Shown here piece by piece: positions 36,556 through 58,510 of a stretch of DNA of 64,000 nucleotides. A model generated the notes under the pieces. That model worked only from the letters and a program-made list of their open reading frames with translations. It had not been told where the DNA came from and did no database searches. Within the stretch, counting starts at the first letter, position 1; each line of letters starts with the position of its first letter. Both the position numbers and the translations under genes were made by a program. The DNA comes from Gavia stellata (Eukaryota). The stretch lies in NCBI RefSeq assembly GCF_030936135.1, contig NC_082627.1, positions 205,172 to 269,171 of the forward strand. The letters are read 5' to 3'.

Positions 36556-36612
36556 GTCCCCACGTCCCTCTGTGTCACCTCATGTCCCACCAGGTTCCTC
36601 CTGTGTCCCCCT

Positions 36613-36675: not shown

Positions 36676-37029
36676 GCCAGGTTTCTGTGTCCCTTGTGCC
36701 CCCAAATGTCCCCCCATGCCCCACTACATCCCCCATATCCGTTAAGTCCCCCTATATCTTCCAATGTTTTGTCTTCCTATATGCCCCATGTTACTACATC
36801 CCCCTGTGTCCCTCAATATCCCTCGTGTCCCTAAATGTCCCCCGCATCACCCATGTTCTCCCTACCAATCGTGTCCCCCATACCCCCTACATCCCCCATA
36901 TCCTCAACATGCCCAGTTCTCCCCCCGTGTCCCCAATGTGCCCCACATCCTCAGTGTCTCCCCACACCCCCAACATCCCCTGCATCCCCCGCGCCTCCCC
37001 ACCTCTTGGTCCCTGTCCCCTGTCCCCAG

Positions 37030-37146
37030 GCACGAGGCAGAGCGGCTGGCACAGGAGGCCCGGGGACGCCTGGAGCGGCAGCGCATCCTGGACCAGGCGG
37101 AGGCCGAGCGGGCGCGCAGAGAACTGCTGGAGCTCGAGGCCCTCAG
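37030..37146 (+). CDS. MVP: MVP exon 13 ([38 protein letters not shown]-)
   Basis: Acceptor ccccag|g and donor ctcag|gtcggc. Matches human [39 protein letters not shown]. Confidence 0.9.
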
Positions 37147-37369
37147 GTCGGCCATCTTCCCAGCATGCACTGCAGGGGGGGGCCCCCCCGCAGGTCCTCT
37201 GCCTGTTTGGGGGCACCGGGGTCCTCCACCTTCCCAGGGAGCACCGGGGGTCCCTGCTTTCCCAGCATGCCCCAGGGTCCTCCACCTTCCCATGGGGCAT
37301 GGGGCAGGGTTTGCAGTGGGTGGGGCCCATGGTAGGCGGGCCAAGTGACTCTGCTTCCCCGCCCCCCAG

Positions 37370-37496
37370 CGTGGCAGTGGAGAGCACAGGGGCGGCCCGG
37401 GCGGAGGCGCAGGCTCGGGCAGAGGCCGCCCGCATCGAGGGCGAAGCTGCCATCCTGCAGGCCAAGCTGAAGGCTGAGGCCATCGCCATAGAGACG
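37370..37496 (+). CDS. MVP: MVP exon 14 ([43 protein letters not shown])
   Basis: Acceptor gccccccag|c and donor acg|gtgcgt. Confidence 0.9.
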
Positions 37497-37604
37497 GTGC
37501 GTGGGGGGCGGGGCCTGCCCTGGGGAGGTGCCCCGTGCCAGCTCTGCCTCTGGGAGGCGGAGCTGAGGGGTGGGGGCATGTCCCAATGGAGTCCCCGCCC
37601 ACAG

Positions 37605-37793
37605 GAGGCAGAGCTGTCACGGCTGGAGCGGGTGCAGGCCCAGGAGGTGCAGGCCCAGCGGGCGCGGGGGGAGGCAGAGGCGGCACGGGCCCAGGCGCTG
37701 GCAGCCGTGGAGGCCTCGCGGGTGCGGGAGGTAGCGGCCGCCCTGGGGCCCGACACCATCCGAGACATCGCCCGGGCCGGGCCCGAGCTCCAG
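37605..37793 (+). CDS. MVP: MVP exon 15 ([63 protein letters not shown])
   Basis: Acceptor cccacag|g and donor ccag|gtgagg. 189 nt, 63 codons. Confidence 0.9.
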
Positions 37794-38115
37794 GTGAGGG
37801 GGCGGGGCCTGGTGGGGTGGGGCCACAGAGGGCTGTGGGTGGAGCTAACTGGAGGGGTGGTGCCTGAAGGAGGCGTGGCCACCTGTAGGGGTGGAGCCTG
37901 CAGAGGGGTGCAGAGGCAGGGCCTTGGCTGGAGGTGGGGTCTCTATGGAGTGGGAGGGGCTTTGCTGGGCATGGCACCTCTGCACTGCCAGCAGGTGGTG
38001 CTGTCTTCATGGGGTGGGGTCTGTCGTGGTGGGGGAGTGGCTCACAGGTGCAGGGCTGGGGTTTGCTGAGGGGGCCCAGCCTGCCAGGAGTGGCCAGCAC
38101 CACACCCACCCCCAG

Positions 38116-38259
38116 GTGAAGCTGCTGCAGAGCCTGGGGCTGCAGTCCACCCTCATCACCGATGGCACCGCCCCCCTCAACCTCTTCACCACCGCCCGGG
38201 GGCTGCTGGGGCTGGCACCTCCCCCGGAAAGCTCTGCCCCCCAGGGCCCCACCCCCTGA
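38116..38259 (+). CDS. MVP: MVP terminal coding exon ([47 protein letters not shown], then stop)
   Basis: Acceptor cccccag|g, TGA at 38257-38259. Matches human [37 protein letters not shown]. Confidence 0.9.
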
Positions 38260-38320
38260 GGACCCAGGCATCCAGGCTCCCCAGGCTCCCCTCCTTTCCC
38301 GGAGCAGCCAGAAGCAGCCC

Positions 38321-38326: not shown

Positions 38327-41300
38327 GTGAGCAGGTGCCAGTGGTCATGTCTGCATGATGGTGTGATGTCATAGTGATGTAGGGCCTGGGGCAGTGATGT
38401 CAGACTGGGCAGTGCTTGCAATTATGGCTGCATAACTGTTAACTCCCCAGTGCTCATGGGGCTGGGGGCTGTGATGTCAGCGATGATGACAGCAGGGGCA
38501 ATACCATCATAGCTCCTGGGGTATCGGGAACTGTGAGGTCATCAGCAGTTGGGTACTGGGACAAGCAGTGTCACTGTGATGCCAGGGGACTGTAAGGTCA
38601 GGGCTAGGTTGGTACAGGGCGGGGGGCACAGGCTGTGATGTCACAGTGGCACAGCAACACACATATCACATAATCGGGTAGAAATGACCTCATAATACCC
38701 AGCCTCATGCACTTGCCTCTGGCCTATCTCGTACTGGGGTGGGTGCTGCCAGGGGAGCATCAGGCCCGACCCAGCAGCCCACAGGAGTCTCTGGCCCCTC
38801 TCCCACGTGGTTTCGCTCGCTTGTCTCCCCAGTCACTGCCCCAGGGACCCCCAAGGACCCAGGGTCTGGCTCTGGGCCCTGCACTCCTTAGGACGTCCAT
38901 CGCAGGATGGACTGTGCTGGTCACGCCTAGGGCAGGGCATGACCAACCAGCAAGCTGTTTTCACATGATAGATCCTTTTTATCCCTCTATTTTCCCCTAC
39001 TTATTCCTCCCTAAATCCTCTGGATCCTTCCTTTCGGTTCCTCCCCAAAACATCTCTCATGGTGCCCAGACATTCAGCCCCAGCACGCCCTGAGGCGTCC
39101 CTTGGGCATGCTGGCATCACGATAGGTTTCATACCTGGACCACAGGGCTCACGCTTTTTCCAGGACAGCCGTGGCAGGAGGCCGGGGGGGCTGCACCTTC
39201 CTTTGAGTCTGTAATTATTGTTTTGGGGGTGCATGTAGGGGTGTTTCCTCCACCTGCCATGCTCCATAGCGGATGTGCAGACAGGATTTCTCACACAAGC
39301 TGACACCCACCCTGCAATTCCAGGTATAACTTCCAGTCTGTCTCCCCGCACAGCCCTTCCCAGCTGTCCCTTCCACGCTGAGGGACATGCTCCTGGCGCA
39401 GGGGGCTCAGCCCTGCCCTGGCTGCCTCCCTAAAGAATTTGTAGGTCCCTGTTGTGCAGCCAGCCCGAATTGTACATTAAATGTGAACAGCAAAGAGGCT
39501 GCTGCTCCTGGACTCAGTGAATTACCACGTGTGTCAATGAAGCACTTTTTACACGGTAGCACCTGCCCCCGTATCACGGAGGTTTCCATCCCTACAAACC
39601 TGGCGTCCCCAGGTAAGCCGCTCTGCAGCACAATGGTGCGCAGTGCTCTGCTGCTTGCAGGGCTGTCCTTCCCCCTGGTTCCCTGCACCAACCCTTATTT
39701 CTTGATCGCAGCAAAGGGGTCCTGCCCTCCAATTTGAAATCCCCTACCACCCCCCCCACCGTGCCTACCAGGTCACACAAATCAAAATATGTACAGACTG
39801 TGCAAACCCAATTACTAAATTTTAACGACCACAGCTTGGCAGCCACAGGGGCTGTCATTCCCCTTGATTCCCTGCTCTGATATGTATTTCCTCATATCAG
39901 TAAATTTTTGCATTCCAAACCCCACACCTCCACATGTGCTACCCACTCCCATACGTAACCTCCTCACACCTCTTGATCCACAGCATACTGATGAAGCTGT
40001 GGAAACAAATGCAGCTCCAGCTATACATATAGGTATAATCTATACATCACAGACCACGTCCCTTGCACAGTGCAGGTGCTAATTTTACCATTTGTCTCCC
40101 CAAAGTTGCCTGCAGCATATTAGTAGCTTTCACAGCAGATCCTGAGCCGCTCGCAATCGGGGACAGCAAGTGCAGGCAGAGCTGCCTGTTGCTTCCACCG
40201 ACAAACCACACTGCCAGCATGCCGCAGGGAGCAGACAACGGGGCATGGGACAGCTTGCCCCCGATCCCTCGGGGCCACTGGCCGCAACTGCAGTCAGGTC
40301 AGGCTTCGGCTGCCTGGGCAGTTTTAGCACAATTAAAGCAGGAGCAGCAGGTGAGCTACAGCCCCACTCTGAACAGGGCACAGCAATGGGAAGGGGTGTG
40401 TTGGGTGCCATGAGAGGTCCCTGTGCCTGCACGGGTGGCCAGGTGGGGTGTACCAGCCCTGTTAGCCAAGCTAGCCCCACACCCTTGGCCCCAAGCTGGT
40501 ATCGACCCGTGGAGTCAGGGTCAGCCCCAGCCTGGCCCCTGTGCTGGGGACTGGCCTTGCAGAGTGACTGGAGGTGTTGGAAAGGGCCTGGGGGAGGTAG
40601 TTGAGGCAAGAGGACACATTTCAGGCATACCTGACATGACCTCTCCCCCATGCACAAGAAGGGGAACAGGATGAGCTCCAGCTGGGCAAAGATGCATGCG
40701 GGAGGCACCCAAGCAACAGCATTTGTTGGAAGAAAGACTGGAGAAGCACGAGGGACTGAAAATATGCAGGACATCCTCCCAAACACAAGACCAGGAGTCC
40801 GGCAAAACCTAAACAATGGTTATGCATAAGAGGAGGAGAAGAGCCTGCCAGCCCTTTTTTGACAGCAGGGGGACAACAGCATCAAAACGTCAAGGATGGA
40901 GGAGATGTAGAAAAAAGAAAAACAGCCCACTTCAGTGTGGCCTTCTCTTGCCAAAAAGCTCTCTGGCTCCATCACCTTCACTGCTGCAGCTACGAGCCAC
41001 CAATGACCACAGCCATTGGTGTGAACCAAGGGGCACCAGCTCCATGGGAGCATGTGCTTGCAGCAAAGTTAGAAGTGTTAATGGCTTGCACATTGGTACA
41101 GCCCTTGGTAAGACAGGACACAGAGCAGCCTGCAGCTCCTGGAGGAATGGCCCTTGCAGGCTGGGAGCTCACTCAGCCGCAAGAAGCTGGAGGAACTGCA
41201 GCCTTGCCGGCAGCACCAGCAGAATGAGCGCTGGGATCTGGTGGCGAAGAATGTATTGTATGAGTGAATTGTATTAATACTCTCAAGTTTTTAGTTTGCA

Positions 41301-44300
41301 CACAAACCTCCTCTCCATTAATCCCTAAATCTTATGAGGAGATGTTTAAAAACCACAGCTGACTTCAAAAATGAAGGTAAGCAGCTCCCGTGCAAAGAAA
41401 AACTCCAATAATATTAATAGGACTTCAACCCACCGTGGTCTGCATGGCAGGTACATTCCCAGGGTGTCTCAGTCTATGCTAGACCAGAGATTCTGAAAAG
41501 GTTTGGGTTTTTTTTTTTTTGATGTCTACACAATGTGGAAAAAATATGGCAAATCCCTTCTTGTCAAGGGAATCGCATTCAGTACACAGAAGTGGCACTT
41601 GCAAAGGTAACCTGAAATTAAAAAAAAACTTTTTAAAAGTTTCTCTTTATAGATAAAGAACACCTGACCACTGCTCTCATTCCCTGGCACACAAAGCCCA
41701 CCATAACTTTTTTTTTAAGCCTTGAAAAAGAAATTAATTCCAGGCTTTGAGCAGAGAACTCATCAGGCAACCGGACAGCCGAGTCATCACTTGACCTCAT
41801 CTAATAGCCTTTAGAGAAATAAAGGCTTAAAAAATTTGTTAGAGGCATTTGAGCATTCAAATACACATTCTCTCTTTGAAATTCCCTACAAGAAGAGGTC
41901 TACCAACACATATTGTGTCCAGGTCTATCTTACTCACCACTAACATGAATAGGTTGGACAAAACTAACCTGCCTGCTTTTAAAACTGTTTGAAACAACTT
42001 CAGACTTTCCTTAAGCAGAAGTACAGAGATTACTAAAGACTTCTTCCCCTTTGCAATTATCATTTACTGTGTCTTTGAACTGAAATACCACCCAGTCTCA
42101 ACCAGCGGGAGATGTAAAGTAAGAGGCAATTTTAGGGCTCCTGTGAAGGCAGGACTTCATCCTGCAGAAAACAAGTGTTTTCCATGGCTAGTTTTATCCT
42201 TAATTGCCAACACTTTACTACATGTAATTATGGTCTTAAAAGCTATGACAGCAGGATTTACACCCAGCAAATACAGGATCAACACAACAACAGCAGCTCA
42301 CTGTCCTGTAGAGACTTTCTCTAGAGCACTTAATGGTAGCAAGTTTCACTCGTATATACACACACTCAAGGTATGCTTTGTTCAAAATATCGGTGAAATC
42401 TTGTCTAAGGGACTTTACAATAAATGAAGATATTTATATATACTTAATGAAACCGTAATTTTTTTCGCTGGTATCAAGTACTATCAGAAGAAAAAGCTTG
42501 TGTCTCAGTATGTTAAAGTGATGTCAAGCATGAACAGGAAGAAGACACAAGTGTGTGGCATTAAGTGCCTAGCCTAAGTAGGGCTTTTTTCATATTATTT
42601 TGAAGTACACTGATGTACTATGTACATCATCAAAACATGTTTGTATAAAGACAGACAATGGCTAATAGTTGATATCACGGGAATACAACAATTATGCTAT
42701 TCACATTCCTGCTTTGACTTGAATATTCAGAAAAAATCTAAAGACCCATACGTTTAGATACAGCTCTTTCTACACCTCTTCTATACAACCAAAGAACACG
42801 TTACGCTCAGATTATTAGAACAAGTCTGTTCTATACAACTCACGAGATGACAAAGCCCATGGTAAAACTATTGTTCTACTATAGCAATGTAAACACACTT
42901 CAAAGAAGAATATGCTAATGGTTTCACAGATGACTTTCTAGCAGTAAAACCAAAGCAACAGGGCCTATCAACCTCTTCTGTCTACGAGATGGTTCAAGGC
43001 TGTACATTTATTCTTGGAGGACATCTTCTGGCATACAAAAGGCAGGACTGATGGCCTTCGTTTGTTCTTCTCCTAATATAGTCCAGCAATTCCAAATGAG
43101 GTGTGAAATAGAACCACCTGGGAGAAGAAAGAAAGTTTGTGTTCATCTCCAAAAGCCACCCAGCTTTCATTTGTACGGGATGGAGCTTTTGCTTGTTAGC
43201 AAGAGAACTGCAAGCCTCCATGGCTGAAGATGATGCTGCAACCGAATAAGCTTTTATCTTGCTTGTCAACACCTATCAGGGCAATTTCCGCAGCATGCAT
43301 TTGCAGCACTATGATTTACTTGGGAGATGCTTTTAGATCTCTTCCTGCTCAGACAATGTTCATCTCTGCATTCAGCAGGAAGCACTCGTGTGTCCCCAGT
43401 AACACGTAATGGCATCACACAGCGGAAACAAAGATAACAAAGACCGAAAAGGTAAATTTGATCATCTCCAAGTGCTTCTTCCTTAAATTCCCCATTTGCT
43501 CTGCAGCAACAGTGTAATGCTCTTTAATGGTCTCTGAATACAGAGCTTTGCTGTAAAATCTTAAGAGGGGAGCAGCAACCTACCGTGCTTTCAAACTGAA
43601 AGGAAAGGAAGAAAAAAACCCCAAAGAGACAGCAGCAGTTGTCTGGTACCCGAGTATTCCTTCACTGCGTGAATGTTCCCCAGAAGCATCTATCATCACA
43701 CAACTGCAAGAGGCTATTTAAAGTCTCATGACATGAGCATCCCATCAGTGGAGTTAATTAGTCACTCTACAAAGTCCTACCCAAAATTTCCCATGGGGTC
43801 CAGTGCAGGCTACATCCTGCTGTTTGTATAAGGGGAACTTCTGGATCTTATCACAAAGGTGGTATGTTGCAGCAAACTGCAGGGAATTATCGGGTTATAA
43901 CCGTACATAGGAGCCCCAACCATTGATCACAGCCTAGAAGGTTAAAGCTACACCAGCATAACAAATCCTGCTCCTCAGTGGTTTGCGAAACACATAACAG
44001 GTAGGACCAAGGCACACAGACGTGTATGTTTACTTGCTCCTTCTCAGAACCAGTACATGGCCATTAGAGGAGGGGTAAAATAAGTACATAACAAAATAAC
44101 AATTAAAAAACCAGAACACTTTAGGAACAGCAAGACAAGCTTCCCTCCTACAGGCAGGCATGCTCAGAACAGGGAATGTTCCCCCCTGGCAAGTGGGCAA
44201 GTGAAGTTACTCACTGCAGACTCCGCCTCTAGATGAACAGGATGTATTTTCAGAGAAGCCCGAATGCCTAGAAGATGTATCTGCTGCCATGTCATCCTCT

Positions 44301-45562
44301 GCTCCTCTCTGCAATTCTTCTTTAAAAGCAAATACAAAAGGAAAAACCTGCTAATAAGCACAACCCCTATATTAGGTTCCAAGCAACTAGTTCCTGATAA
44401 CTTCAGAAAAAGAGTCAAGTGGTTTATAGTCAAGTGGTTCAAAACCTGAAATACAAATCACAACGTCACATCAAAAGACTACAATCTAAAACTAATTTAT
44501 AAAACAAAACTAACAGGGGATCTGTTAGGAGTTTCTGCAGGAACAAAGCAAAGACTTGTAAGCACCAATGTTTCTACGGCTGTGCCCACTCTTCCACAAA
44601 AGGCAAGATCGGCAGAAGTAACATGCCATGACTGCTAATATAACATGTAAACACCCCCAAAGGCAACTAACTGCATTAGGCATAGAAGGACTCTGCAAAC
44701 TTGGTCGTCGAGCAGGGCAGAAATAGCTCAAGTTTAATCCCAAGACCAGAAAAGCATTAGGACTTTAAATGTTAAGCTTTTCTTGGGGCATTTTGAAGAG
44801 AAAAAGGTCTTTCTGTGAGCTCCTTAGGAATTAAAAAAACTTTTCCATTTTAACAGCCCCAAAACACTTTCCAAGTGACAGAGCAGAACAAAGACATTCC
44901 CTACCCCACCAGTGCAAAGAATGCGAAGGATGTATCGGCTTACAAAGGAACAGAAAGCTACAGTCCTTAACACATCTGTGGAGAAAGGAAAAGACACGGA
45001 CAGCTGTAATAAAAATAGCTACCATCTCCCCCGACCCTTGACAAAGAGGCAGCCAAGTGTTCTACAGGAGTTGCACTGAGGTCTCGTAAGACTTAATTTT
45101 ATCTGACCAGTGCCCTTGAAAGACATCTTAATTTGCCACTTTACTTGGACAATCTCAGTTCTTTCCAGTTGAAACTGGACAGAACAGACCAGCTAAATAA
45201 ACCGTAACATGCTCTCAGCCACAGGGAAAATCCATACTGCCAGCCTCTTCATAATGGTACCGCAAAATCTTCTTCCACCTTTACCTAGACAATGCCAGTG
45301 AGAGGATTTGTTCAGCATGTGGGCCGGCACAGAACAGACATTGGGGTGTAGGGATTCTTAACAGTAATTTCTGACTCGTTTAGATCAGGCAAAAGCACCA
45401 AGAGGTGAAGACTAATTAACCCGCGGTGGTCTCTAGAGGCTTGCAAATTGCTGCGCTTTTTTGAAATAGTATTTTTACAGAGTTCTTCTACATGGTCTTG
45501 GGAGAAATAATTCACATGGTCTTTGTTTTGGGAACCACAATTCTGTAAGGAACACCAACTGA

Positions 45563-45643
45563 CTACAGCGCGGGATGTCGCAGTACAAGCGCAATGTAAG
45601 ATATCATGGGCTCCCCAAGTAAGCCTTCTAAAGCAACTCCACC
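45563..45643 (-). CDS. RABGGTB: RABGGTB candidate terminal coding segment (GGVALEGLLGEPMISYIALVLRHPAL, then TAG); splice phase unresolved
   Basis: Matches human RABGGTB GIAGLSLLGEEQIKPV. No in-phase acceptor joins it to the upstream exon, and the preceding HTLF motif is absent. Confidence 0.4.
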   Translation of the reverse strand, partial: GGVALEGLLGEPMISYIALVLRHPAL

Positions 45644-45780
45644 TTATTCTTTCCCTCTAATTAAACTGCAGCTCTGCAAAACGCTTACATCTGGGTCACA
45701 AGTTACACTCAGATGAGAAAAAACACTTTTTCAGTTGAAGATTTCCATTAAGGAAACTTTATTTCGTTAAGGGTTATTTA

Positions 45781-45930
45781 CTGTGTCTCCTGGCCTGTCA
45801 GCAAATCCTCCACTCTCCCCATCCCAGCAAGCCACAATAAAGCAGCACAGTTTCCCCCCATCGATCCAGTGCAACCTGCCAATCGCCTCCAGAGAGGCTA
45901 GCACCCACCATGAATAACACACATCAGGGA
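45781..45930 (-). CDS. RABGGTB: RABGGTB exon ([50 protein letters not shown])
   Basis: Acceptor ttggcag|TTCCCT and donor ACA|gtaaat on the minus strand. 37/50 identical to human [50 protein letters not shown]. Confidence 0.85.
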
Positions 45931-46638
45931 ACTGCCAACAGAGAAGCAGAACATTATCTGGTTTTCTTTTAAACACGACGTTGTCAACTGTATTGGTGAT
46001 CCTGCAAACTACTAGCTGTGCTACTGTAATACTGTTGCAGAGAAACAACAAGAAAGTTCGTGGATGCAGTCTCTTTTTAGATGACCTCTTCCCTTCAAGA
46101 AACAAAAATGCACGAACACTGATTTTGAAACAGCCTTCACCGCCTACAGGAGAGGCTAGAAATCCACAGCACCTTTTTCACAAGTTATCTTTCAACTTAT
46201 TTTTTTTTTTTTAAGAAGAATCTGTTGGTTGATTATCCATTTGTCAGAGGAGTTTATTCCAGGTTACACAATTTCCTACTGTGACACAAAACACTATTAT
46301 GCCTGCGATTAACATCCAGTAAAACAGTAATTTTCCTACAAATCCTAAAGAAGAGATAATTCCCAACGACAAAAATATTCAGGCCCTGATTTAACAGGCT
46401 ACTGGTTCAAGTGGTCAGCAAGACATACTGCGGCACACATACTTGCCTAAAGCGAGGCCTCAAATGAAGAGTAGCTAAAGACTGGGTGGCAAGTGTTAAC
46501 GACAAAATGAAGAAGCAGAATGAAAGCCAGTTTACAAAGCATTTCATAAAAGTCTCAACATTTTCCAGGGATTCTTCAAATATAGAAAAAATAATATCTA
46601 CTGAGCTCTGAACAAACAAAAGCAACCCAAAAGCATAC

Positions 46639-46727
46639 CTCCGGTCACCCGTTGAGTCCTCCAGCAGGTACCTGATGTTCACAAAGCCATCAACCCAGCA
46701 AGCCAACATCCACTTGATGCAACCGGT
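46639..46727 (-). pseudogene. RABGGTB: RABGGTB exon homolog ([27 protein letters not shown]) with two in-frame TGA codons
   Basis: Acceptor ctgtaacag|AC and donor GAG|gtatgc. The phase agrees with both neighbouring exons. It aligns to human [29 protein letters not shown]. TGA replaces W at 46690-46692 and R at 46645-46647. Confidence 0.7.
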
Positions 46728-46893
46728 CTGTTACAGCCAGTAATCCTGTGAATCCATAGATCCAAAATTACAGAAATAAGCTTGTATTGAAAAACTAAGT
46801 ATAGTTTAACAGAGTAAATGCAGGAACACAGTCCTGCACGCACGATGCAAAAGGAGCACACATCCCTCCCTTTTAGTTCCTAGTGAGTTTTAC

Positions 46894-46957
46894 CGACTGG
46901 GATGTGCCTTTCCAAGACTACTGCACAGCAGACATAATATTCCCAGATAGTTTTGAA
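46894..46957 (-). CDS. RABGGTB: RABGGTB exon (FKTIWEYYVCCAVVLERHIPV-)
   Basis: Acceptor cccagcag|TTC and donor GTCG|gtaaaac. It ends in phase 1, matching the 2-nt start of the next exon. It is similar to human IYCCTGFLAITSQ but longer. Confidence 0.55.
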
Positions 46958-47094
46958 CTGCTGGGCAGGCAAAGCAGTTGCCATTGCCAGCATTTTAAGG
47001 AGTACATGAATACGCATAACAAATTTAACCCTTCCAGGAAACGCCAACTGAAAAGGCAAAAAGGAATGTACAACCCTAACAGGAAAAAAAAAAT

Positions 47095-47160
47095 CGCGGT
47101 TCCCCCTACACAGCAAATCTGAAAACATGACTGTTCACTGCGATCAAACAGTTAGGTAAT
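47095..47160 (-). ncRNA. Candidate SNORD45-like box C/D snoRNA (copy A) in a RABGGTB intron
   Basis: The minus strand reads …ctaactgtTTGATCGcagtgaacagtcatgttttCAGAtttgctgtgtagggggaacc… A 45-nt core is shared with copy B. The core resembles, as far as I recall, human SNORD45B (…CAGAACAGTCATTTGTTCTGATTTGCTC…). Human RABGGTB hosts SNORD45A/B/C. Confidence 0.45.
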
Positions 47161-47413
47161 AGGAAAAAGCCTGGCGCACTGCTAGAAAACTCTGTGTAGC
47201 AGTAAGCTTTCTAGAATAATAAAGCTCAAAGTGTAACTACAACCCTGTGGCCCCTTCTCCTTCTGCCAAGGAGCCATAACGTAACATCAAGAGCCTGACT
47301 GTCCCCAGAGCATCGGGTAGTGTCGGGTGACACAGATGTTAGAAAGACACTTCTATAGGCACTATGTGATGCTGGCTAACTTAAAAACATCTCCGTATCA
47401 AGAAAAACCTCAC

Positions 47414-47513
47414 CTGTCCTGCACGTGACTCAGAACCAAACCCTCCATACCACCTCACATGGGGAAAAACCAAATCCTCCTGCTTTCCCCACATCAAGAG
47501 CATCCAGTTTTCC
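47414..47513 (-). pseudogene. RABGGTB: RABGGTB exon homolog with an apparent frameshift (GKLDALDVGKA in one frame, …VRWYGGFGSESRAGQ in the next)
   Basis: Acceptor cttgcag|G and donor CAG|gtgagg. Human [37 protein letters not shown] aligns to frame 1 for the first 11 residues and to frame 2 from EDLVFPHVRWYGGFGSESRAGQ onward. Only frame 2 stays open across the exon. Confidence 0.6.
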
Positions 47514-48500
47514 CTGCAAGGCACACAACAGCAACTAAGGCACCGTACCTATCCTAACCAAGCTCCCCACTCCAGAGGCTTCAGCAGCGCTCATGAGAAG
47601 GGCCTGTACTTGCGCAAGCAATGATATAGGTCTTACCAGAAGAGCCAGGGTTGCTGCAGCACAGAGGGAGAACCCGGTCGCTAGTCCTCCTAGGATGCAG
47701 GGGGGGCAGGAAACGCAGTAATTTTTTTCTTTTTAAACGACAACAAAAATACATTCAAATCACCACTGAAAGTATGGAACAAAATGCTAAAGCCCCAGGT
47801 TTTATACTGAACAAAAACCAACCTAACTAAAAAGTGCCCCCGTACTGTTTCCTTTTCTATCCCACAGATAATGTCCTCAACAACCGACATGTGCACACCA
47901 CCCCACCAGTGATCTGTGTGTTTACTGCCCATAAAAGAAAGCAAATCCTTTTCAGCTGGTCTATCTATCCAGACAGAGATCCAAATAAACTCAAATAGCA
48001 TCACTTGCAGAGAGCTGTCTGACCTTAAGCTTTATCTGTAGCGCCCTACTGGGTAACTGCAGAGCTGCGGACTCGCGGAAACACTGGGGCACAACTCCTG
48101 GCCTGCCCGAAATGCTCCTGGCTCTCTCGGGTGCCTGGGCAGAAGTGGAAACTGTTCTTGGGTTTAGAGCAAGACTGACTAGACTTGCAAGTTTTCTTTT
48201 GCATACTCACACCTGGAAGCAAAACCAAAACAAGGCACACCTGCGGATGAGTGACTGCAGGGCATCTCCACACCAACAGACCTCTCCCAACACACACTTT
48301 CAGCAATTAACCCCCCAAGCCAACATCTGAAGTTGAACCTGGCCACCAGTTTTAAAACAATGGAATCTGGGGGTCAACCTGATGCCACGCCTTTCCTTCT
48401 CAAAAAATCCACAAACTGAAACAAAGAAAACACACACTCTTCTCCGCTCCATCGGGTATCGCGCTCCTTCAGTTCAGCTTTTACTGCATTTCACAAATAA

Positions 48501-48618
48501 CGTAACGAACCCCCGCAGAAAAGCTATAACCACAGCACGTTCCCTACGCAGCAAATCTGAAAACATGACTGTTCACTGCCATCAAAGGACGATGTCACAC
48601 GACCCTTCCAGCATTACG
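48501..48618 (-). ncRNA. Candidate SNORD45-like box C/D snoRNA (copy B) in a RABGGTB intron, with terminal stem
   Basis: The minus strand reads CGTAATGctggaagggtcgtgtgacatcgtccTTTGATGGcagtgaacagtcatgttttCAGAtttgctgcgtagggaacgtgctgtggttatagcttttCTGCgggggttCGTTACG. It has a 6-7 bp terminal inverted stem (cgtaa…ttacg), a C-like box TGATGG and degenerate D' and D boxes (CAGA, CTGC). Confidence 0.45.
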
Positions 48619-49476
48619 GATGCGTAGCTGGGACTAAACAGCCTTTGCGCATGAAGAACCTGCACGTGCAGGTTAAGTTTGCCACCAAATCTCTGCATCA
48701 GCATTTGCTAACGCTGTTCAGCTCTGGGTATCCAGAGCTGCATTCGCTTAACACGAACAGCCAGAATTTTACTCCTAGTAATGTTACTCCCAGCAACAGC
48801 CAGAATTAAGCCCGGAACTACACCTCCCTAACGCGTAAACGGAAGAAAAAGCAAAACGGTGCCCCCTGCGCCTTACGCTGGGTTACAGCCTGTGACAACT
48901 ATTTGATGCCACAGTTCGGAAAAGCTCCAAGGTCGCAGCCAAAAGAAACTGGACTTTCCTGGGTCTCAGAGTAATTCTAGAGCTAAACTGGTCATAGACA
49001 TCAACTCTAGATCAGATAATACATGCCAACACTCATCACGGACCCAAGGCGGCAACCTCCCCCTGTCCTACCCAAGGCTTTCAAATGCAACACGCCTTCT
49101 TCCTAAAACAGAACGCTACCCTATTTATTTGTAACACCGTTAACATACTTCTTCCTTGAGATGGGACTAGAGATACGTTACGCAAGCGATCAAGCACTGG
49201 CGCCTTTCGGGCATTGTTCTTCACCTCAGCTGGCGCGACAAGGAAAATAAAAGACAGAACCGACGGTGAGAAATTCAACCTACAATGCAACTAGCTACGG
49301 TGAACAAATAAGATTGAGACCAAGTCCTTTTCCTCAGGGGAGAAGTACACACCAAATCAATCACTGCTGAGAAGACCGCTAGGATTCTGAGAGAAAAACC
49401 AACCCCTAACCCTCAACAAGGGAGGGTTATTACTCTCAATAAAAGCACAGCTGCGCTGAAATAAGTCGATACTTAC

Positions 49477-49549
49477 GCAGCCGCCTTCCCTTGTCCCATA
49501 CGAAGTTACACGGGCCACGTGGTTCTCCAAAAGTAACGGGCTCAGGCAT
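49477..49549 (-). CDS. RABGGTB: Candidate first coding exon of the minus-strand gene from the CpG island (putative RABGGTB exon 1; ATG and reading frame uncertain)
   Basis: Minus strand: aaaaccTGATGCCTGAGCCC…GGCGGCTGC|gtaagt. The phase of the first ATG matches a downstream acceptor (tcgcgccag|CTGAGGTGAAG…) that gives EVKNNARKAPVLDRLRN, weakly similar to human DVIIKSDAPDTLLLEKHAD. The N-terminus MPEPVTFGEP… does not resemble human MGTPQKDV. Confidence 0.3.
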
Positions 49550-50300
49550 CAGGTTTTCTTATCGCGTCCCGTCGCGGCGTCACCTGTAAAAAGCACCAAC
49601 AAAACGTCGGTGGTGGTGGTGTCAGCTCGGGGGCCTTCCGTGCCCGGGGCTGACTCGGCCAACTCCGCAGCAGCCAGCGCCTGTGTGACACAGACCTTTC
49701 TCCGTCCACCCTGACCGCCGGCACATCGCCCGCCTCGCTTCCCGGCCTGGCAAAACCCTCTCCGGGGAAACCCCGCAACCAGGCCGAGGCGAACCACCAG
49801 CTCGCCGCTGACCGCCCCGACCAGTCGGAGGCCGAGACTCTGCCGATCACTCCGCCGCCGCCGCCCCCCTCCCCTCCTTCCCACGGGCGTCTCGTGGGGG
49901 CCTGCCGCCGCCAGGCCCGGCCCAAGCAGGCTCAGCCGCCGTGCCATTTCCCACCGCACCGCTGGATCTGGAGTGAGTGGGGCCGCAGCCCCCGCGGCGG
50001 GGCCGGGCCCTTTCCCCGCCACGCGGCGCGCAGCACCCACCTCCCCCGCCGCCCGCACCGGAAAGAGCGTCAGCTTCCGGGGCGGGGCATGAAATAGTTC
50101 TGTGCAGGACCCCGCTATAGCTGCCCGGCGTTCGCCTGACCCGCCCTGGCGCACTGAGGTGGCGCCGCGGCCGTGCAGCGCCCGGCGGTCAGGAGGACGC
50201 CCTGCGGCGGGGAAGGACCCCGCCCCGGCGGCGGGTGTCCAGGGGGGGTTGTGTGGAGAGCCCGGTCCTAGAGCTCAGCCCCGGAGGTGGTGAGGGCAAC
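49550..50300 (-). promoter_or_regulatory. RABGGTB: CpG island, probable RABGGTB promoter
   Basis: Extreme GC and CpG density with GC boxes (ggggcgggg). It lies just upstream, in minus sense, of the candidate first exon. The RABGGTB exons and the 3' end of ACADM flank it, as at the human ACADM-RABGGTB locus. Confidence 0.6.
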
Positions 50301-52393
50301 TGCGCTTCCCTCAGAAATAAACCCCTTCCCTTCCTCTTTAGAACTGGGTACTCTGATGCGCTGTTAATTACTAGCGTTGGAGTCTGGCCTGCGTGATCCG
50401 TGCCGGGCGGGAACACCGTTTCGAGACTATAAATATAAAAAACACAGACGATGCTGGCTGGCATAGAGCATAAGGTCTCTTCTTCGGGGTGGGTGGGTGT
50501 TTTGGGGGGGTCTGGGGGCTTATGGGGCGCCTTGGGTGTTTGGAGGGGTTTTGAGGCCGCTCCAGGCCTCACCAGCGCTGAGCGATTTCCCCAAGAAGTG
50601 GGGGGAAGGTGCGTTCTGCCAGCGCTGAAGGAAGGGCCTATCCAGGTAAAAAGAAAACCTCACAAAAATTCCTCCTTCTCAGCTGTTCTTGCTGCAAATG
50701 TACTTAAGTGTATAACTGATGGAAAGGAATAATGGGTTTAAATGCATTTGAAATAAACATGATGCTGTAAGTCATTCTTAAGGAAAAGCTACACACTTGA
50801 ATCATCCTAATTGAACGTTTACTTGCTTAGGAAGTGTAGTAGTGAAAGAGGCCACGCTGTCTGAAGCGGATATTCTGTTCCTGCTGGACAGTATCTAAAT
50901 CCTTAAGACAGACGCACATGCAGACAACAGCAGCGCAGGCCTTGGGCTGGAAGGGCCGTGCAGCTGCTGAGTGCTGTATCATGGCGAGAACCACAGTTAC
51001 AGCTGTAACGTACTTCAGACAGCGGACGACTTACCTGAAATACAATTTAAATGACGTGACAAGCAAAGCAAATAAAAGCAACCACACTTCTTCGCTTGTA
51101 AATAGGTTTTCATTAGAATGCAGCAATGCCTGTCAGAAATAATTAAAATTAGATGATCAAAATGTTCAGTGAAAAAACAATGTGTTGTCAGGTTCCCATT
51201 TCTTGCCCCTTATTGTATGTGGGCTTTTGGGGTAATATCCAAGTTTAGAACAGCGTTGTTGTAACTGAAAAAAAGGCAGCTTCCTACAGGTTCTTTCACA
51301 TGAGATCAGTTCAAATGAAAACATGTATAAAATTGAATGATAATACTTTTGTCCCACTATGACAAAAACACATATGTGTATTTCTCAAGAGCTGTACTTA
51401 ACACTCATCCATAAAGAAGTCGTCTTGCTTAAGGCACAAGAAAATAAACATTTTCTTCATAAATGTTACAGGTTTCTTTGAGGCACAGAGATAAACGCAT
51501 TGAATGACAATTTCTGCCTGCTTGAATCAAGTGAATAAGATGGTTAAGTCACAGAAAAGAAACCCTATTATGCTACATCTTTTGAAAGCAAAAACTAGTT
51601 TTTGTTCGTGCTGACTCACGGATGAGTGTAAAATATAGATAATCTGCAAGTAGTAATCCAGGCACCATTTGAGAAAAATAGCACCTCTCCGTGTAGTATT
51701 TTATGAGCATGTATGTTTCTGAAAGGTCCAGGAGTCAATATGTATTCCCTTTCAATTTTTTTAAAAGATGCAAGATTCTAAAGGCCACAAAACCACAGTG
51801 TTAGCATCTTTATTTGAGCAAGTGGTAACCTAGAGACCATGTGCTGCAACACGGTATTCCTGAGGAAACAGAATTGCTTTTTTAAATTTCCCTGAGATTT
51901 GTTATTTTGATATCCACCCAAACTCCAGTGCTAAAACAGTGGGAGCAAATCTGTGTCATTATAGACAATACAGAAACGCCTGAAAACCAATTCCGTGTTA
52001 CATGCTGAATGCCTTCACAGACCAAAAAAAAATTTAAAAATCTGAATTTTGTTCACTTTTTTGATCATATCAATTTTACAGGACGGTGTTTACCTCTTCT
52101 CCCACCAAAAGCCAAAGATTTGAGTGAAAGAGAGCGAGTGGGGAAAGACAACAGCCAATCACATTGGAATTCAGAAAAGTTTAGAAAACACCAAGTTTGT
52201 TAGTCAGAAGGAATGAAGTGAGGGAATGGATGGGGAGTACAGAAGTAGTGCTTAATCGTGTATGCAATAAAAAGATTTCGAAGGAAAAGGGTTTTTTCCA
52301 CACCTTTCTAACTGTATTGAGAAATGCACTAAAATCCTCTTCCATGAGAGCACAGAACACTGCAGCAGCACCAGACGTGCTTGATACGTTTCT

Positions 52394-52465
52394 TTAAGCC
52401 TTATATTTGCCAACGTGTTCACGAGCTATGATCATCCTTTGAATCTGAGCAGTTCCCTCATAAAT
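52394..52465 (-). CDS. ACADM: ACADM terminal coding exon ([23 protein letters not shown], then TAA)
   Basis: Acceptor cttttcag|ATT on the minus strand. Matches human [23 protein letters not shown]. Confidence 0.9.
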
Positions 52466-55332
52466 CTGAAAAGAAGAATGGCAATAACGTTAGCTGATCA
52501 TTTTTTAACATATTTTAACAGATCTTTCTACGCATGTAAACCTTCACAGCACTAATCCAGTGTGGATTAGGATGTGCAGAAAGACAGAGAAAACTGAAAA
52601 AATTCCAGTGTGACTTGAGTAACTACAGTGGGCTAAATGCAATAAAGCACATACAAGATATTGAGAGACAGTCTTGTTCTCTTAGATGCTCACATCAAAA
52701 CTCAGTAAGGTTCTCATGAAATTAACAGACACAGTGGGTGAAGAAGGAGGGGGAAATGTCTTATCTGGGGAAGAAAATATGTAATTTAGGTTTTACGAAG
52801 TAGGCTTTGAAACAGTGGGTGGAGGGGAGGAGGTGGCCTATGCTGGAAGTGTTGTATTTTCTTTGACTAGCCTTTTGAGGCCATAGCAAGTGTTCCCTTT
52901 CATCCATTTATTCCCTTCAACACACTATTTCCTTTCTTTTTTCTTTTTTTTTTTTTTTCTTTATTTTACCCACATATTCTTGCATTTTCCTCTAGAAACA
53001 TTCTGCATCTTACCTCTGTTCTGTTTGGCTTGCTGGCAGCAAAGCCAGAGATACACAGCAAAACACCTATGTAGGTCTAACGCAGAAAGAAGGCCATATA
53101 CTCCACAGGCACAGTGCAACGTGATTTGAGGGCAATATAGTGTAGGGGTACAAGTGTTTCAGCTCCCAGTTCTGCCAAAACTTGCTTTGGCAAATTGCTC
53201 AAACACATACAAATTCACTTTCTCTGTAGTCATAAAATAGGGAAAATCTTCCCAAAAACCTTACAAAGCTGTTCAAAAATACAGGCACTATAACCTGTGG
53301 TCATGTAAGTTTTTTTGATTCAGAGGCAACCGTTCATTCTCAAAGTGGATTCTCCGACTGCTGCTGCTTACCCCGTATAGATCCAGCCCATGGAGCAGAC
53401 TTCGCTTTGTCAATACTAGGTGCCCTCTGGAGTAAACAGCACTGGAATCTCTCCTCTCTACCTACACCCAACACCCTCCAAACCCTAACGAAGACGTCAT
53501 GGTCCAAGCCTACAGCTGGACCCTTACAACGATGCGCATAGTGGGGTCATTCAGCCCAAACAGGCCTGCCGTGAACTCGGCCTCCCCCAGCCACCTGCGG
53601 TAGATGCGGGGGCCTTGGCAGCTCCTCCTGCCTTCTGCCCCTCTGTTTCTGCTGCACTAAATGACTTGCTGATGAAGACAGCCATGAAACTCATGTGTAA
53701 GGACAAGCCACAGTTTTCTGAAGTAACCACGAGAAAGCTTTTGGTTTGTAAGCCAACGGGAGCAGTTTCAAGAATCCTTGACGATTCAAGAAGGGAAGTT
53801 TTCGAATTTGAGAAACTAAGTTACCAGTTTCTGTCATAGTAGCCTGGATTTGTAGCCAGATAGAAACCCAGAGCAAAGTGTGAACATATAAGAATGTTAC
53901 CAGTAAACAGAGTAGCAGAATCGTGTCATACTGAGAAATACCAAACATGTGGAACAAAAGAACAGGTGGAAAACAAAGTTTCTGTACGTGAAACGTAAGG
54001 CCAAGAGCATATACCACCTGGAATTGGGCAGTAATACAGTGAAGCGTAACCAGAGACATGGATGAAGTAATTATAAAGAGAAGAGCCTTTCCTGTATTCT
54101 TTTGGGGATGAAGGGGAGCAGAAAAACACCAAAAATGTAATACTAAATCAGATTAATTTGAGCAATTTAAAAAAAAAAGTCTACCTAGCCCCGCATTCGT
54201 GATGGATCAGTGTAATGGAAAATCTAAATAACTGGGATCCTGTAAAATCAATCATCTCAACTGTCAAATAAACTGCTAACCCTCCCACCCTCTTTCTCTA
54301 GAAACACATGGAACCTGACAGGAAAAAGGCCGAATTATAACAAAGTTCAACTACTCATTCATTTCCTCGCTTGCAGGAGTGCAATTCATACTAAGAACCT
54401 TTAGATTCCAAGACAGCAGTTTTCTGTCCTTAGACTGAGAAAAATTCTTGGCTGGTAAGAATACTTTTAATTTTAAAGTCTGCTGTAAGAGAAATTTAAA
54501 CTACCTAGAATTTTAAGAATGACAGCTCTTATATCCAACATTACAGGTCACGGTAAGCATGCATTTCTTGATATCATCTCTTCCGATATGTTTTATCTAG
54601 TCATTATTAATGTCAGCAAGAGGTGACAAGATAAAGATTACTGGGTTTCCTGAACATAATTAAGTCATTCTTGCTGAATAAAGAACTGTAGCGTAGTATA
54701 TGCTAAGAGAAGAATTATCACATGGAAAAATTTCTTGGTAATAATACTGCAGAAAAAGATCTGAAGATTATAGGTGACTACGGGCTAAACACGAGTAAAT
54801 ATAAGCATGTTCTGTTGTTGTTGTTTTCTTTTTTTTTTTTTTTAAAACAAAAGACTAATCACTCCAGGTTGTGTCACGCTTCTGTTAACACAACATATGC
54901 AAGTTAATTAATCCATGATACTCAGTGCTGGTGATATGTCAGCTGAAGTAATCTGCCCAGCTTATGACACCAAAGTTTCAGACAGAAGGTTTAGAGCAAG
55001 AAGCGAAGGAGAGAACAGCGTTATACGCAAACCATCTCTACTTACAGAATACCCAAGCAAGCATTGGTATTTTGATCAGTGTGGTTTTTTCTGAGAGTTC
55101 AAAAGCTTCAATGAAGAGTCCAAGAATTTCAAAGAGCTACCTCATCAGAAAAACAAAACACCACCACTGACTTTACGTCTCTTTTGTAGGTTAAGTTGTT
55201 GTTAAGAGTTTTGTATGCAAGAATTTGCCTGATTTGAATGCCCTTTCTTTAAAGGGAAGGATTATTGCTGTCACACTCAAAACTTTTTTTGTATGTGCAC
55301 ATCATGATTTCAAATAAGTAGCCCTTAGTTTA

Positions 55333-55635
<303 letters not shown>

Positions 55636-56329
55636 CTATGAAAGATGAAATAGCCTGGGTTAACATTGCCTGCTTAAAATTCTGTGACATCTAAGAAGAA
55701 CACAGTCTTCTTAATTTCTTAATTTGTGACTTCAACACACTCAGGAAATTGCACTTGAGGAGTGCTACAGAATTTGGATCAGGTTTTCATAACCATATGT
55801 TGAATTAGACTTTTAGGTTTTTAATTGTGAAATCCACTTACTCACAGTGATTAAGTATTGAATTATGAAGTTGTGCTTTACTTCTTATGAGATCTGTATT
55901 TAGTTTGATGTTTACTGAGATTTCTTTAAGCATAGTAAGCAGTGTGATTGGCAACATATTCTATTAGTATTAATACTTGCAAGTCTTGTTTCACGTACCT
56001 CAGGGAGGTATTTTCCTTCCCCGAAAATCCCTGTTTATTAGAATTGAAGAACTTAAGTACGTCCTGATTGTATGTGAGTTTCAGGGTTTGGGGCAGTGTT
56101 TTCTTTGTGATTTTACTACTATCATCAACAAGTTCTTGAAGAATCACAGGAGTTACTGTATAGCTAGATTTACTTAGATAGTGCTGACCTATATACTTGA
56201 AGAGCCAAGCAACGGCAGAGATATAACAAATTACACATCCTAAATATCAAGGAACAACCTTGAAAATTCACTAGTAGTGCACCTGGTATGAAAACACAGC
56301 TTTTTGATATATTTATTTTTATATATTTA

Positions 56330-56485
<156 letters not shown>

Positions 56486-56507
56486 CTAACTTATTTCTGA
56501 TACTTAC

Positions 56508-56648
56508 GGGTGGTCTGGTCTTATCAAAAGCTCCCATTGCAATTTTAAAGCCAGCTCCCTCAGCTATTAATACATTTTCTTTTGGAACTCTCACATCTTC
56601 AAAGACAATACCTCTTGTATCAGAGCAACGCTGACCCATATTCATCTC
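56508..56648 (-). CDS. ACADM: ACADM exon 9 ([47 protein letters not shown])
   Basis: Acceptor ttttcag|GAG and donor CCC|gtaagt. Matches human [47 protein letters not shown]. Confidence 0.95.
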
Positions 56649-57539
56649 CTGAAAAGGGAATTTTACAGAGGTGCAACTAAGTTGGATTCTTCCAAGGTAC
56701 AACACATTTTCATTCTTTAGTTTACTCAAAGCATAAAAAAAGCTTTTCTTTTCCCTCCAAACACTTTAGTTTTACCTAAAAATCACCATATACACAACAA
56801 ATACTAGTTTTGCATTTACAGACCAGTATGCCCTTAATTTGTCAAAGCTGGGCAGTTTACTTCCTCCATATGTGAAATTAATTCTGTAGCTGTAATCACT
56901 CATTTGTCTTTTTCTAGTTCAATTATATCCTTTGAGATGGGAGAGGAAAAAGTCAAGAACCTATAATGCAGGCAGAAGTAAAATATGGCTGTACTACAAA
57001 CAAACAAATAAATAAATGAGATTTTCAAGTTTTCCAATTCCTTTCCTAATGTTCAATGTCCAATTTTACCTGCTACTGAAAATAGTACTTCCTTTGGTTT
57101 GGGTTTTTTTGTTTGGTTGGGTTTTTTTTTCCCAAAAAAGACAACTATCCTTGAGCAGAGTAGCTAAAATGAAAGCACACCGTGTGTTTATGGTTAAAGT
57201 TGTCCACCTTGCTTCTTACACTTCTAAGGCATGCTACTTCACATTAATTGGAGCTTGTCAATTAAACGGTTCTCAAAGATTCTTTTGCAGCTGTGCACAG
57301 TCATCTTACATTAGACCATCCTGAATAATTCCTTATCTGAATTAATAAAATCATAATTATCAAGTAAGTCTTAATAATAGTTTCTGTATGCTGTGAAAAT
57401 GAAGAGATCATTGTACATGAGCACACGAAAATGTTCAGTTGCTTAACAGTCTCTTTTCTTTAATGGCAATATGTTGCATTATTGGTTTAGAAGCGAGTAA
57501 TAATTCCTGGCTTGTCAAATTAAGAGATACGCTGTTCAC

Positions 57540-57648
57540 CTTTCTCCCAATTTGGATTCCAGGGCTATTTGCTTCCACAATGAATCCAGTAAAGGCTTTG
57601 CTTGCAGGAGCTTTTGGATCTGGGTTGGTACGAGCTAGCAAAAAATAC
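57540..57648 (-). CDS. ACADM: ACADM exon 8 ([36 protein letters not shown])
   Basis: Acceptor cactag|G and donor AAG|gtgaac. Matches human [37 protein letters not shown]. Confidence 0.95.
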
Positions 57649-58068
57649 CTAGTGTAAAACAAAGAAGAGGGGAGTCAGTTTATCCTCACAATTAACAATC
57701 AGGTACTTTTTTAGCTAACGTGTGAAATGTTTTTATGTGTTTGTACCGTGTAATAAATCTATCTGTAAGTTAACAGCCCTTTTTTCTTGGCCCTTCCAAA
57801 AATAAACTGGGAGGGGGTGAGGGAGGGGAAGTGTCAGTGCACTTCTTACTGCAAAAGTCAAGATTTAATAAAATTACTGCAGAACAGGATGCAAAGGTTC
57901 TCCATCATTTCCATGTATTGTACATCTTAATATTACAATCAGCTTCATGAATAGTACAAAAGAAACCTATTCACAGCACATACGTAAAAATTATTGCTTA
58001 GGAAATACAGTATTGCATGCAAAATGTTGTGTTATCCTCTTGATTTCAAATATCTTAATTTTATTCTT

Positions 58069-58510
58069 GTAAGTTTAAGTTGTAAGTTTAAGTTGTAAGT
58101 TTAAGTTGTAAGTTTAAGTTGTAAGTTTAAGTTGTAAGTTTAAGTTGTAAGTTTAAGTTGTAAGTTTAAGTTGTAAGTTTAAGTTGTAAGTTTAAGTTGT
58201 AAGTTTAAGTTGTAAGTTTAAGTTGTAAGTTTAAGTTGTAAGTTTAAGTTGTAAGTTTAAGTTGTAAGTTTAAGTTGTAAGTTTAAGTTGTAAGTTTAAG
58301 TTGTAAGTTTAAGTTGTAAGTTTAAGTTGTAAGTTTAAGTTGTAAGTTTAAGTTGTAAGTTTAAGTTGTAAGTTTAAGTTGTAAGTTTAAGTTGTAAGTT
58401 TAAGTTGTAAGTTTAAGTTGTAAGTTTAAGTTGTAAGTTTAAGTTGTAAGTTTAAGTTGTAAGTTTAAGTTGTAAGTTTAAGTTGTAAGTTTAAGTTGTA
58501 AGTATAAGTT
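58069..58510. repeat. 13-bp tandem array (GTAAGTTTAAGTT) of about 33 units in ACADM intron 7
   Basis: A near-perfect array gtaagtttaagttgtaagtttaagtt… is read directly. On the minus, ACADM-sense strand the unit reads AACTTAAACTTAC. Confidence 0.95.

Follow-up and report, generated by a model that had tools for sequence, protein, structure and literature searches.

The stretch of DNA considered here is 64,000 nucleotides (nt) of the Gavia stellata contig NC_082627.1 (positions 205,172 to 269,171 of the forward strand, assembly GCF_030936135.1). We call this whole 64-kb stretch the window and number it from its first letter. It carries MVP on the plus strand (26,301-38,316) and, tail-to-tail with it, a RABGGTB-like copy on the minus strand (42,994-50,043, with a transcription unit from about 50,100). 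On the opposite side of this copy lies ACADM, also on the minus strand (about 52,400 to 63,202 and beyond), so that the RABGGTB-like copy is downstream of ACADM. RABGGTB, which encodes the beta subunit of Rab geranylgeranyltransferase, is an essential gene, and in human the small nucleolar RNAs (snoRNAs) SNORD45A, SNORD45B and SNORD45C are hosted by protein-coding RABGGTB. A first-pass annotation of the window had reported multiple coding lesions in the copy, between 45,563 and 49,549. The lesions are real and exceed those first reported, the copy actually covers 42,994-50,043, and all of its coding capacity has been lost. One of its introns holds an intact SNORD45, and the locus has probably been retained as a non-coding host of this snoRNA, a reading that we develop below from sequence comparisons.

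The copy was read against four intact RABGGTB loci, those of Amazona guildingii (L001), Penelope pileata (L002), Phainopepla nitens (L003) and Antrostomus carolinensis (L006). Their exon structures were solved exactly, and each exon was then aligned, together with its splice sites, to the window. We number the eight large coding exons E1 to E8; a tiny upstream exon holds the ATG only. All parts of the copy are on the minus strand. At the end of the ATG exon (50,039-50,043) the initiator ATG has become GAG (50,041-50,043) and the donor GT is kept (50,039-50,040); the alignment reads GGCGGCGAAGATG in Amazona and GGCGGCGGGGGAG in the window, each followed by GTGGGT. E1, the true exon 2 (49,477-49,583), carries a -1 and a +1 indel and a premature TGA at 49,542-49,544, its 14th codon, with the acceptor AG and the donor GTAAGT kept.

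Large deletions have removed the next two exons. The first, with its junction at 49,381-49,440, took away about 1.5-1.8 kb that held the intron-1 (type-1) SNORD45 and E2, the exon for amino acids (aa) 39-104; window position 49,440 is equivalent to L001 10,151 and 49,381 to L001 11,959. The second has its junction at 48,495-48,505 and removed about 2.4 kb, including E3 (aa 105-140), with 48,495 equivalent to L006 2,870 and 48,505 to L006 5,282. E2 has no match anywhere in the window by tblastn or by exon alignment, and exon alignment finds no match to E3 in the window.

The remaining exons are diverged by about 18-27%. E4 (47,637-47,689) is free of indels and keeps its AG and GT, and the conserved EIDTRF has turned into GLATGF. 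E5 (47,414-47,513) also keeps AG and GT. The first-pass annotation had deduced a 1-nt indel in this exon; it is there, as a +1 insertion, and is accompanied by a 12-nt deletion, leaving a net frameshift. E6 (46,639-46,761) has a 3-nt deletion at the donor and the two in-frame TGA codons that had been reported, which tblastn and direct translation place exactly where they were said to be, at 46,690-46,692 (from TGG) and 46,645-46,647 (from CGA). Its ancestral acceptor AG at 46,762-46,763 is now GG, while the site at 46,728, earlier taken for the acceptor, proves to be a cryptic AG. Of the 11 splice dinucleotides of the retained exons, 10 survive and the ancestral E6 acceptor is the one lost. 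E7 (45,782-45,931), whose limits had been given one base off as 45,781-45,930, is clean as stated: its 150 nt contain no indel or stop, AG and GT are kept, as is the DVCYSWW motif of zinc ligands, and its nucleotide divergence from Amazona is about 18%. The segment 45,563-45,643, once taken for the terminal one, is intron-7 sequence. The true last exon, E8, lies outside the span first reported, at 42,994-43,117, and has -4, -1 and -7 nt deletions with the acceptor kept. The VDPFHTLF motif, said to be absent before GIAGLSLLGE, survives there in a decayed form, VVLFHTSFGIAGL. The human RABGGTB sequence on which those first comparisons relied is correct, being identical to PDB entries 6O60_B and 6J6X_B.

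The obvious objection to such a list of lesions is that some other choice of exons or frames could restore an open reading frame (ORF). It does not. A spliced, frameshift-aware protein-to-genome aligner returned the exact protein from the intact Amazona gene, our control, with a score of 1633; on the window copy the same aligner scored 514, with 5 frameshifts and in-frame stops, and no exon or frame choice yields an ORF. The aligner placed an apparent remnant of the exon sequence for aa 54-140 at 47,700-47,964, which we rejected as filler, this segment being homologous to Amazona intron 3. With about 100 residues of the alpha-alpha barrel deleted, and with its frameshifts and stops, the copy is not a functional Rab geranylgeranyltransferase beta subunit (PF00432). 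Substitution rates tell of the same loss. Across 211 shared codons, comparing the window copy with intact birds gives a ratio of nonsynonymous to synonymous substitution rates (dN/dS, or omega) of 0.43-0.49 and a dN of about 0.18, against 0.05-0.07 and a dN of 0.02-0.03 for intact RABGGTB among birds. A three-taxon decomposition assigns a dN/dS of roughly 0.7-1.2 to the window branch, which implies neutral evolution through most of the copy's history.

The homology extends through introns and flanks, hence the copy is not a retrocopy. The window is collinear from 41,276 to 62,800 with the ACADM-RABGGTB region of Amazona, introns and spacer included, and blastn identity is 66-80% across introns, spacer and 3' flank in comparisons with Amazona, Penelope, Phainopepla and Antrostomus. 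The 3' flank (41,276-42,993, minus strand) is homologous to sequence downstream of intact RABGGTB. Collinearity is lost at 41,276, 1.75 kb past the stop codon, and at the same base for Amazona and Antrostomus. The interval from 40,014 to 41,276 contains the junction between a GC-rich block with MVP and an AT-rich block with ACADM and RABGGTB, GC content falling from 0.64 to 0.37 across it.

This junction is also found in other birds. In Podargus strigoides (GCA_028020825.1, CM051638.1, below 14.35 Mb) collinearity with the window continues from the sequence 3' of MVP into the 3' end of the RABGGTB-like copy. Nyctibius bracteatus and the gull Chroicocephalus ridibundus (GCA_963924245.1, OZ001751.1, below 9.50 Mb) have the same MVP junction. 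In the cuckoo the MVP locus is collinear with the window only to 39,076, and a GGT-family gene comes after MVP there. The E8 of Podargus has decayed as well. It shares with the window the 1-nt deletion and two substitutions, GAT to GTT and AAT to AGT, and has further deletions of its own. The sharing of these lesions means that the inactivation is older than the split of these two species. In the gull the block extends across the spacer between RABGGTB and MSH4 and reaches the first coding exon of MSH4, of which a dead fragment remains (L008 27,568-28,620, minus strand; -3, +5 and -7 indels); the window lacks it. About 4 kb then remains before MVP in the gull. Judging from these comparisons, the block on the MVP side is a duplicate of ACADM-RABGGTB-MSH4', one edge of which falls within MSH4; it has since been trimmed in the window's lineage. 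As a separate observation, the gene 3' of intact RABGGTB in Phainopepla (L003 23,465-27,601) encodes a GNAT-type acetyltransferase, not MSH4, and the RABGGTB-MSH4 adjacency is therefore not universal in birds.

The intact snoRNA of the copy is a box C/D snoRNA of the SNORD45 family (Rfam RF00279), the intron-2 (type-2) isoform, at 48,960-49,044 on the minus strand. Its score of 62.3 bits over model positions 1-72 exceeds the gathering threshold of 42. The boxes are intact (C GUGAUGA, D' CUGA, C' UGAUGU, D CUGA), the terminal stem is formed by GGGUC and GACCC, and the core specific to the type-2 isoform is GAUCUAGAGUUGAUGUCUAUGACCAG. Two antisense elements, UUAGCUCUAGAAUUAC and GGCAUGUAUUA, are identical to those of intact bird copies and are complementary to the 18S rRNA segment around A158 and U171, which we take to be GGUAAUUCUAGAGCUAAUACAUGCC. 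The chicken U45 homologue, GGgCD5, likewise has two isoforms, in introns 1 and 2 of RABGGTB, which are guides for 18S-A158 and 18S-U171 (PMC2653536).

How well has this snoRNA been kept? It is identical to the third Penelope copy at 86 of 94 positions. When the snoRNA and its flanks are counted separately, the identity between window and Penelope is 77/84 (92%) for the snoRNA and 196/304 (64%) for the flanks (Fisher p = 3e-7). The locus thus has two of the features of a non-coding snoRNA host: exons without protein-coding potential, and an intronic snoRNA that is conserved when the exons are not. The isoforms have had different fates. The intron-1 type is intact in Penelope (2 copies), Amazona, Phainopepla and Antrostomus, and was lost in the window along with E2. 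For the intron-2 type, the copies of Penelope and the window are intact and those of Amazona, Phainopepla and Antrostomus are dead.

Penelope itself carries three intact SNORD45 copies (L002 10,256-10,338, 11,646-11,728 and 13,590-13,673), among them a tandem pair of the intron-1 type. The window promoter segment 50,001-50,148 matches L002 10,687-10,834. This Penelope segment lies between the members of the tandem pair, 3' of the first exon as annotated, and a unit of promoter, exon and snoRNA thus seems to have been locally duplicated in Penelope.

The first-pass annotation had mentioned SNORD45-like elements in the introns; the one at 48,960-49,044 is the only bona fide SNORD45 in the window. 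A 45-nt segment occurs twice on the minus strand, in the intron after E5 (47,104-47,148) and in the former intron 2 (48,542-48,586), with 43 of 45 positions identical. A second snoRNA could be suspected here, but we rejected this reading: the segment lacks boxes and shows no sign of folding (z = +0.3 and -0.9), and the collinear intact sites match it at a background level of 29-32 of 45. The repeat is plain intron sequence that was locally duplicated once, the copy at 48,542-48,586 being the original. Also rejected was a C/D-like element at 44,396-44,483 (minus strand), a snoZ182 match of 27.7 bits against a gathering threshold of 80, whose C and D boxes are absent in the Amazona homologue. 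This element holds a short tandem duplication, AACCACTTGACT.

The start of the transcription unit has been retained too. A promoter CpG island lies at 49,550-50,350 (minus strand), with a GC content of 0.71 and an observed/expected (o/e) CpG ratio of 0.86; the intact Amazona promoter has 0.71 and 0.82, and the o/e ratio in the rest of the locus is 0.35. In a local alignment, the Sp1-like CCGCCCC and the ETS-like, pyrimidine-rich CTCTTTCCGG boxes of the island, as well as the exon-1 donor, align with the region upstream of the Amazona gene. A pyrimidine tract, CTCTTTCC, is conserved in the same promoter alignment and is a candidate for a 5'-terminal oligopyrimidine start.

Is the decayed copy a paralogue of the intact gene or its orthologue? 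In a neighbour-joining tree built from 738 ungapped columns of intron 7 and E8, the two decayed copies, of the window and of Podargus, group together with 100% bootstrap support, and Antrostomus, Amazona and Phainopepla form a group that excludes the decayed copies with 98%. Podargus and Antrostomus are both Strisores, therefore this tree conflicts with orthology of the decayed copies. The dead intron-2 snoRNAs provide a second set of characters. Those of Antrostomus, Amazona and Phainopepla share an insertion of 8-10 nt before the D box and a change of CTGA to CTGC in the D' box, and those of Antrostomus and Amazona also share changes in the C and C' boxes. None of the shared inactivating changes is present in the window or in Penelope. 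Taken together, the tree and these changes show that the copy left the intact-gene lineage before Strisores and Telluraves diverged.

Chromosome assignments bear on the same question. Intact multi-exon RABGGTB genes are annotated on chromosomes of 30-86 Mb in Alca, Aegotheles, Nyctibius grandis, Calypte and many other birds. The MVP block of the gull is found at the end of a 9.6-Mb chromosome, and the MVP of N. grandis on a 642-kb contig. By analogy with these related birds, we infer that the genome of G. stellata has an intact RABGGTB elsewhere, on a macrochromosome resembling chromosome 8. For these birds, the single-copy status of RABGGTB assumed in the first-pass annotation does not apply. 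The history of ACADM is tied up with that of RABGGTB. In Amazona and Phainopepla ACADM adjoins the intact RABGGTB, and in the window an intact ACADM adjoins the dead copy, thus the duplication seems to have included ACADM. In regional distance ratios that compare the histories of ACADM and RABGGTB, the window branch is long throughout.

On balance, we think that the window contains an old unprocessed RABGGTB pseudogene, set in a block derived from ACADM-RABGGTB-MSH4 beside MVP, that persists as a non-coding SNORD45 host. The block would derive, by copying or translocation, from the ancestral region of ACADM, RABGGTB and MSH4, and the copy now lies tail-to-tail with MVP. The RABGGTB protein would be supplied by the intact gene elsewhere in the genome. 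The dead copy, for its part, would still be transcribed from its CpG-island promoter and spliced, and its useful product would be the intronic SNORD45, guiding 2'-O-methylation of 18S rRNA at A158 and U171. The SNORD45 isoforms would then be partitioned between paralogues: the three intact neoavian genes examined (Amazona, Phainopepla and Antrostomus) have kept the one in intron 1, and the dead copy the one in intron 2. The idea of a decaying duplicate or unprocessed pseudogene had been among the explanations first proposed, and is supported here in the sharper form of an old paralogue common to several bird orders. Drift towards a snoRNA host had been another; it gains from a snoRNA conserved above its flanks and from the persistence of the CpG island and the splice sites, and it is from such conservation that we infer transcription, splicing and snoRNA release.

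Several points weigh against this interpretation. Transcription, splicing and snoRNA release are predicted from conservation, and keeping 10 of 11 splice dinucleotides is just weakly improbable under neutrality. Should a working intron-1 SNORD45 come from the intact gene, the copy is formally redundant, and the intact RABGGTB of this genome is itself predicted by extrapolation from related orders. The intact ACADM of the block demands either two functional ACADM genes or a reciprocal loss. Finally, a quartet without an outgroup is a star, and the window lineage is long-branched in the ACADM and RABGGTB parts alike. The tree taken by itself could therefore reflect long-branch attraction, and the paralogy leans on the shared snoRNA-inactivating changes and the chromosome assignments.

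It is unlikely, although far from absurd, that the copy is a dead duplicate without any function, whose SNORD45, CpG island and splice sites are relics or are kept for unrelated reasons. Such a view accommodates the pseudogene status itself, the acceptor already lost and a snoRNA that would be made redundant by the intron-1 isoform of an intact gene. It has difficulty with a snoRNA that matches the galliform copy so much better than its flanks do, in a copy whose exons are near-neutral. The same isoform has fully decayed in three intact genes. Presumably, too, an island with an o/e ratio of 0.86 would be unlikely to survive tens of millions of years unless it were hypomethylated in the germline.

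We consider it improbable that the window holds the ancestral, orthologous RABGGTB, its coding role having moved to a new copy, for example a retrocopy or one made at a staggered translocation breakpoint, with ACADM as the single original. The full collinearity with ACADM and the ACADM-RABGGTB spacer, an intact ACADM with an omega of 0.045, a synteny break just 1.75 kb past the stop codon and the star-like quartet would all fit this reading, and a retrocopy lacking the snoRNA would explain why the host must persist. However, the derived inactivating changes in intron-2 SNORD45 are shared by Antrostomus, Amazona and Phainopepla and missing from the window, the gene tree puts the decayed copies outside the intact genes, and relatives carry ordinary multi-exon intact genes on macrochromosomes. 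The adjacency of ACADM to intact RABGGTB in Amazona and Phainopepla means that both locus lineages include ACADM, which also counts against this reading.

It is very hard to believe that a shortened or alternatively spliced protein related to RABGGTB is still encoded here. E7 is open and retains the zinc-ligand motif, but the start codon is lost, a stop stands at codon 14 of E1, about 100 alpha-alpha barrel residues are deleted, every flanking exon is frameshifted with no ORF to be built, and the substitutions in E7 lack a synonymous bias. Sequencing or assembly errors in a functional gene, also proposed at first and favoured only by the a priori expectation that RABGGTB is essential, can be dismissed, since more than 100 near-neutral substitutions (dN/dS near 0.45) and kilobase deletions that remove two exons lie in a window with 0 Ns, and the independent Podargus assembly shares the 1-nt frameshift and two substitutions, which excludes such errors.

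If the host interpretation is extended in time, a bolder proposal follows, which we advance tentatively and with slightly more doubt than belief. The ACADM-RABGGTB-MSH4' copy may predate the main neoavian radiation and have stayed next to MVP in several orders (Strisores, Charadriiformes and that of the window's species), and the dead gene may have been kept for at least roughly 60 million years as host of the sole intact intron-2 SNORD45, reciprocally lost by the intact gene.

The genes on either side of the copy are intact, as the first-pass annotation had it. MVP has 16 coding exons, all with GT-AG introns, and an 853-aa ORF; its top homologues are 92-95% identical, the highest being that of Podargus at 95.3%. 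In the MVP intron that follows exon 36,344-36,555, the segment 36,616-36,681 (plus strand) repeats, in diverged form, the last part of that exon, and looks like a small tandem partial-exon duplication within the intron. The MVP homologues listed come from waterbirds, Strisores, cuckoos, Galloanserae and paleognaths, and none from a passerine, parrot, falcon, hawk or owl is among the best 120 matches or the cluster members shown (15 of 69 in the largest cluster). MVP may be absent or unassembled in Telluraves. The ACADM exons for aa 37-420 give a clean reading frame under strong purifying selection (omega = 0.044-0.050), and those for aa 1-36, the 5' end, were not found within the 64-kb window. 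Relics of CR1-type reverse transcriptase also occur in the window and, together with the best protein matches, mark it as DNA of a neognath bird. A CR1-related inverted repeat of 649 nt has its first arm at 1-649 and its second, 96% complementary, at 33,818-34,466 inside the long MVP intron (32,804-35,135), and 3 more CR1 inverted pairs are found at 4.5-22.4 kb.

Non-coding snoRNA hosts such as GAS5, UHG, U17HG, U19HG and the SNHG family are well known, and duplicated pseudogenes are commonplace. How does the present locus compare with these? It resembles the non-coding hosts in its conserved intronic box C/D snoRNA, its non-coding and poorly conserved exons and its putative pyrimidine-rich start region beside a CpG island. 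Unlike these, its origin is visible, in the relic exons of a duplicated essential enzyme gene whose parent copy would still exist elsewhere, and its transcription is putative. It is like segmental-duplication pseudogenes in having introns and flanks copied, disabling mutations, near-neutral evolution and a truncated neighbour at the edge, the gull MSH4 fragment. It is unlike most of them in being old and shared across orders, with an embedded element apparently under purifying selection and a functional ACADM in the block. When set beside the vertebrate RABGGTB genes that host SNORD45 (human; chicken GGgCD5), the copy belongs to the same gene lineage and shares the exon-intron layout of its retained parts, the promoter type, the snoRNA family and the two 18S antisense elements. 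It cannot, however, encode the enzyme, has lost 2 exons and the intron-1 snoRNA by deletion, and lies beside MVP instead of MSH4.

The complementary losses, which leave the intact gene with the intron-1 isoform and the dead copy with the intron-2 isoform, recall the duplication-degeneration-complementation model. The usual cases differ from this one in that here the partitioned items are intronic snoRNA isoforms with the same guides, and one partner has no protein. In chicken a gas5-like gene is the only non-coding snoRNA host that was reported (PMC2653536). A literature search for a RABGGTB pseudogene or duplication in birds found nothing. What is unusual about the locus is that its derivation from a duplicated essential enzyme gene can still be seen, that it is old and shared across orders, and that snoRNA isoforms are partitioned in a complementary way.

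These results have a practical side for the annotators of bird genomes. A RABGGTB look-alike beside ACADM can mislead the assignment of orthology and the rescue of 'low-quality protein' models. For phylogenetics, the junction with MVP and the common frameshift offer discrete characters that might be brought to bear on contested deep neoavian relationships. If the bolder proposal is true, then junction and lesions together would be a rare genomic change useful for deep bird phylogeny, present in gull and Strisores and absent next to the cuckoo MVP.

The intact ACADM in the block raises a further question. Do some birds carry two functional ACADM genes? If the duplication is as we propose, either ACADM would have persisted over a long time as two functional copies, or its copies would have been sorted reciprocally among lineages.

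In summary, the locus gives a detailed view of how a duplicated protein-coding gene may turn into a non-coding snoRNA host. Selection on an intronic RNA of 85 nt may preserve a promoter and splice sites well beyond the loss of the protein and, if the bolder proposal is true, duplication-degeneration-complementation would be acting on intronic snoRNAs.

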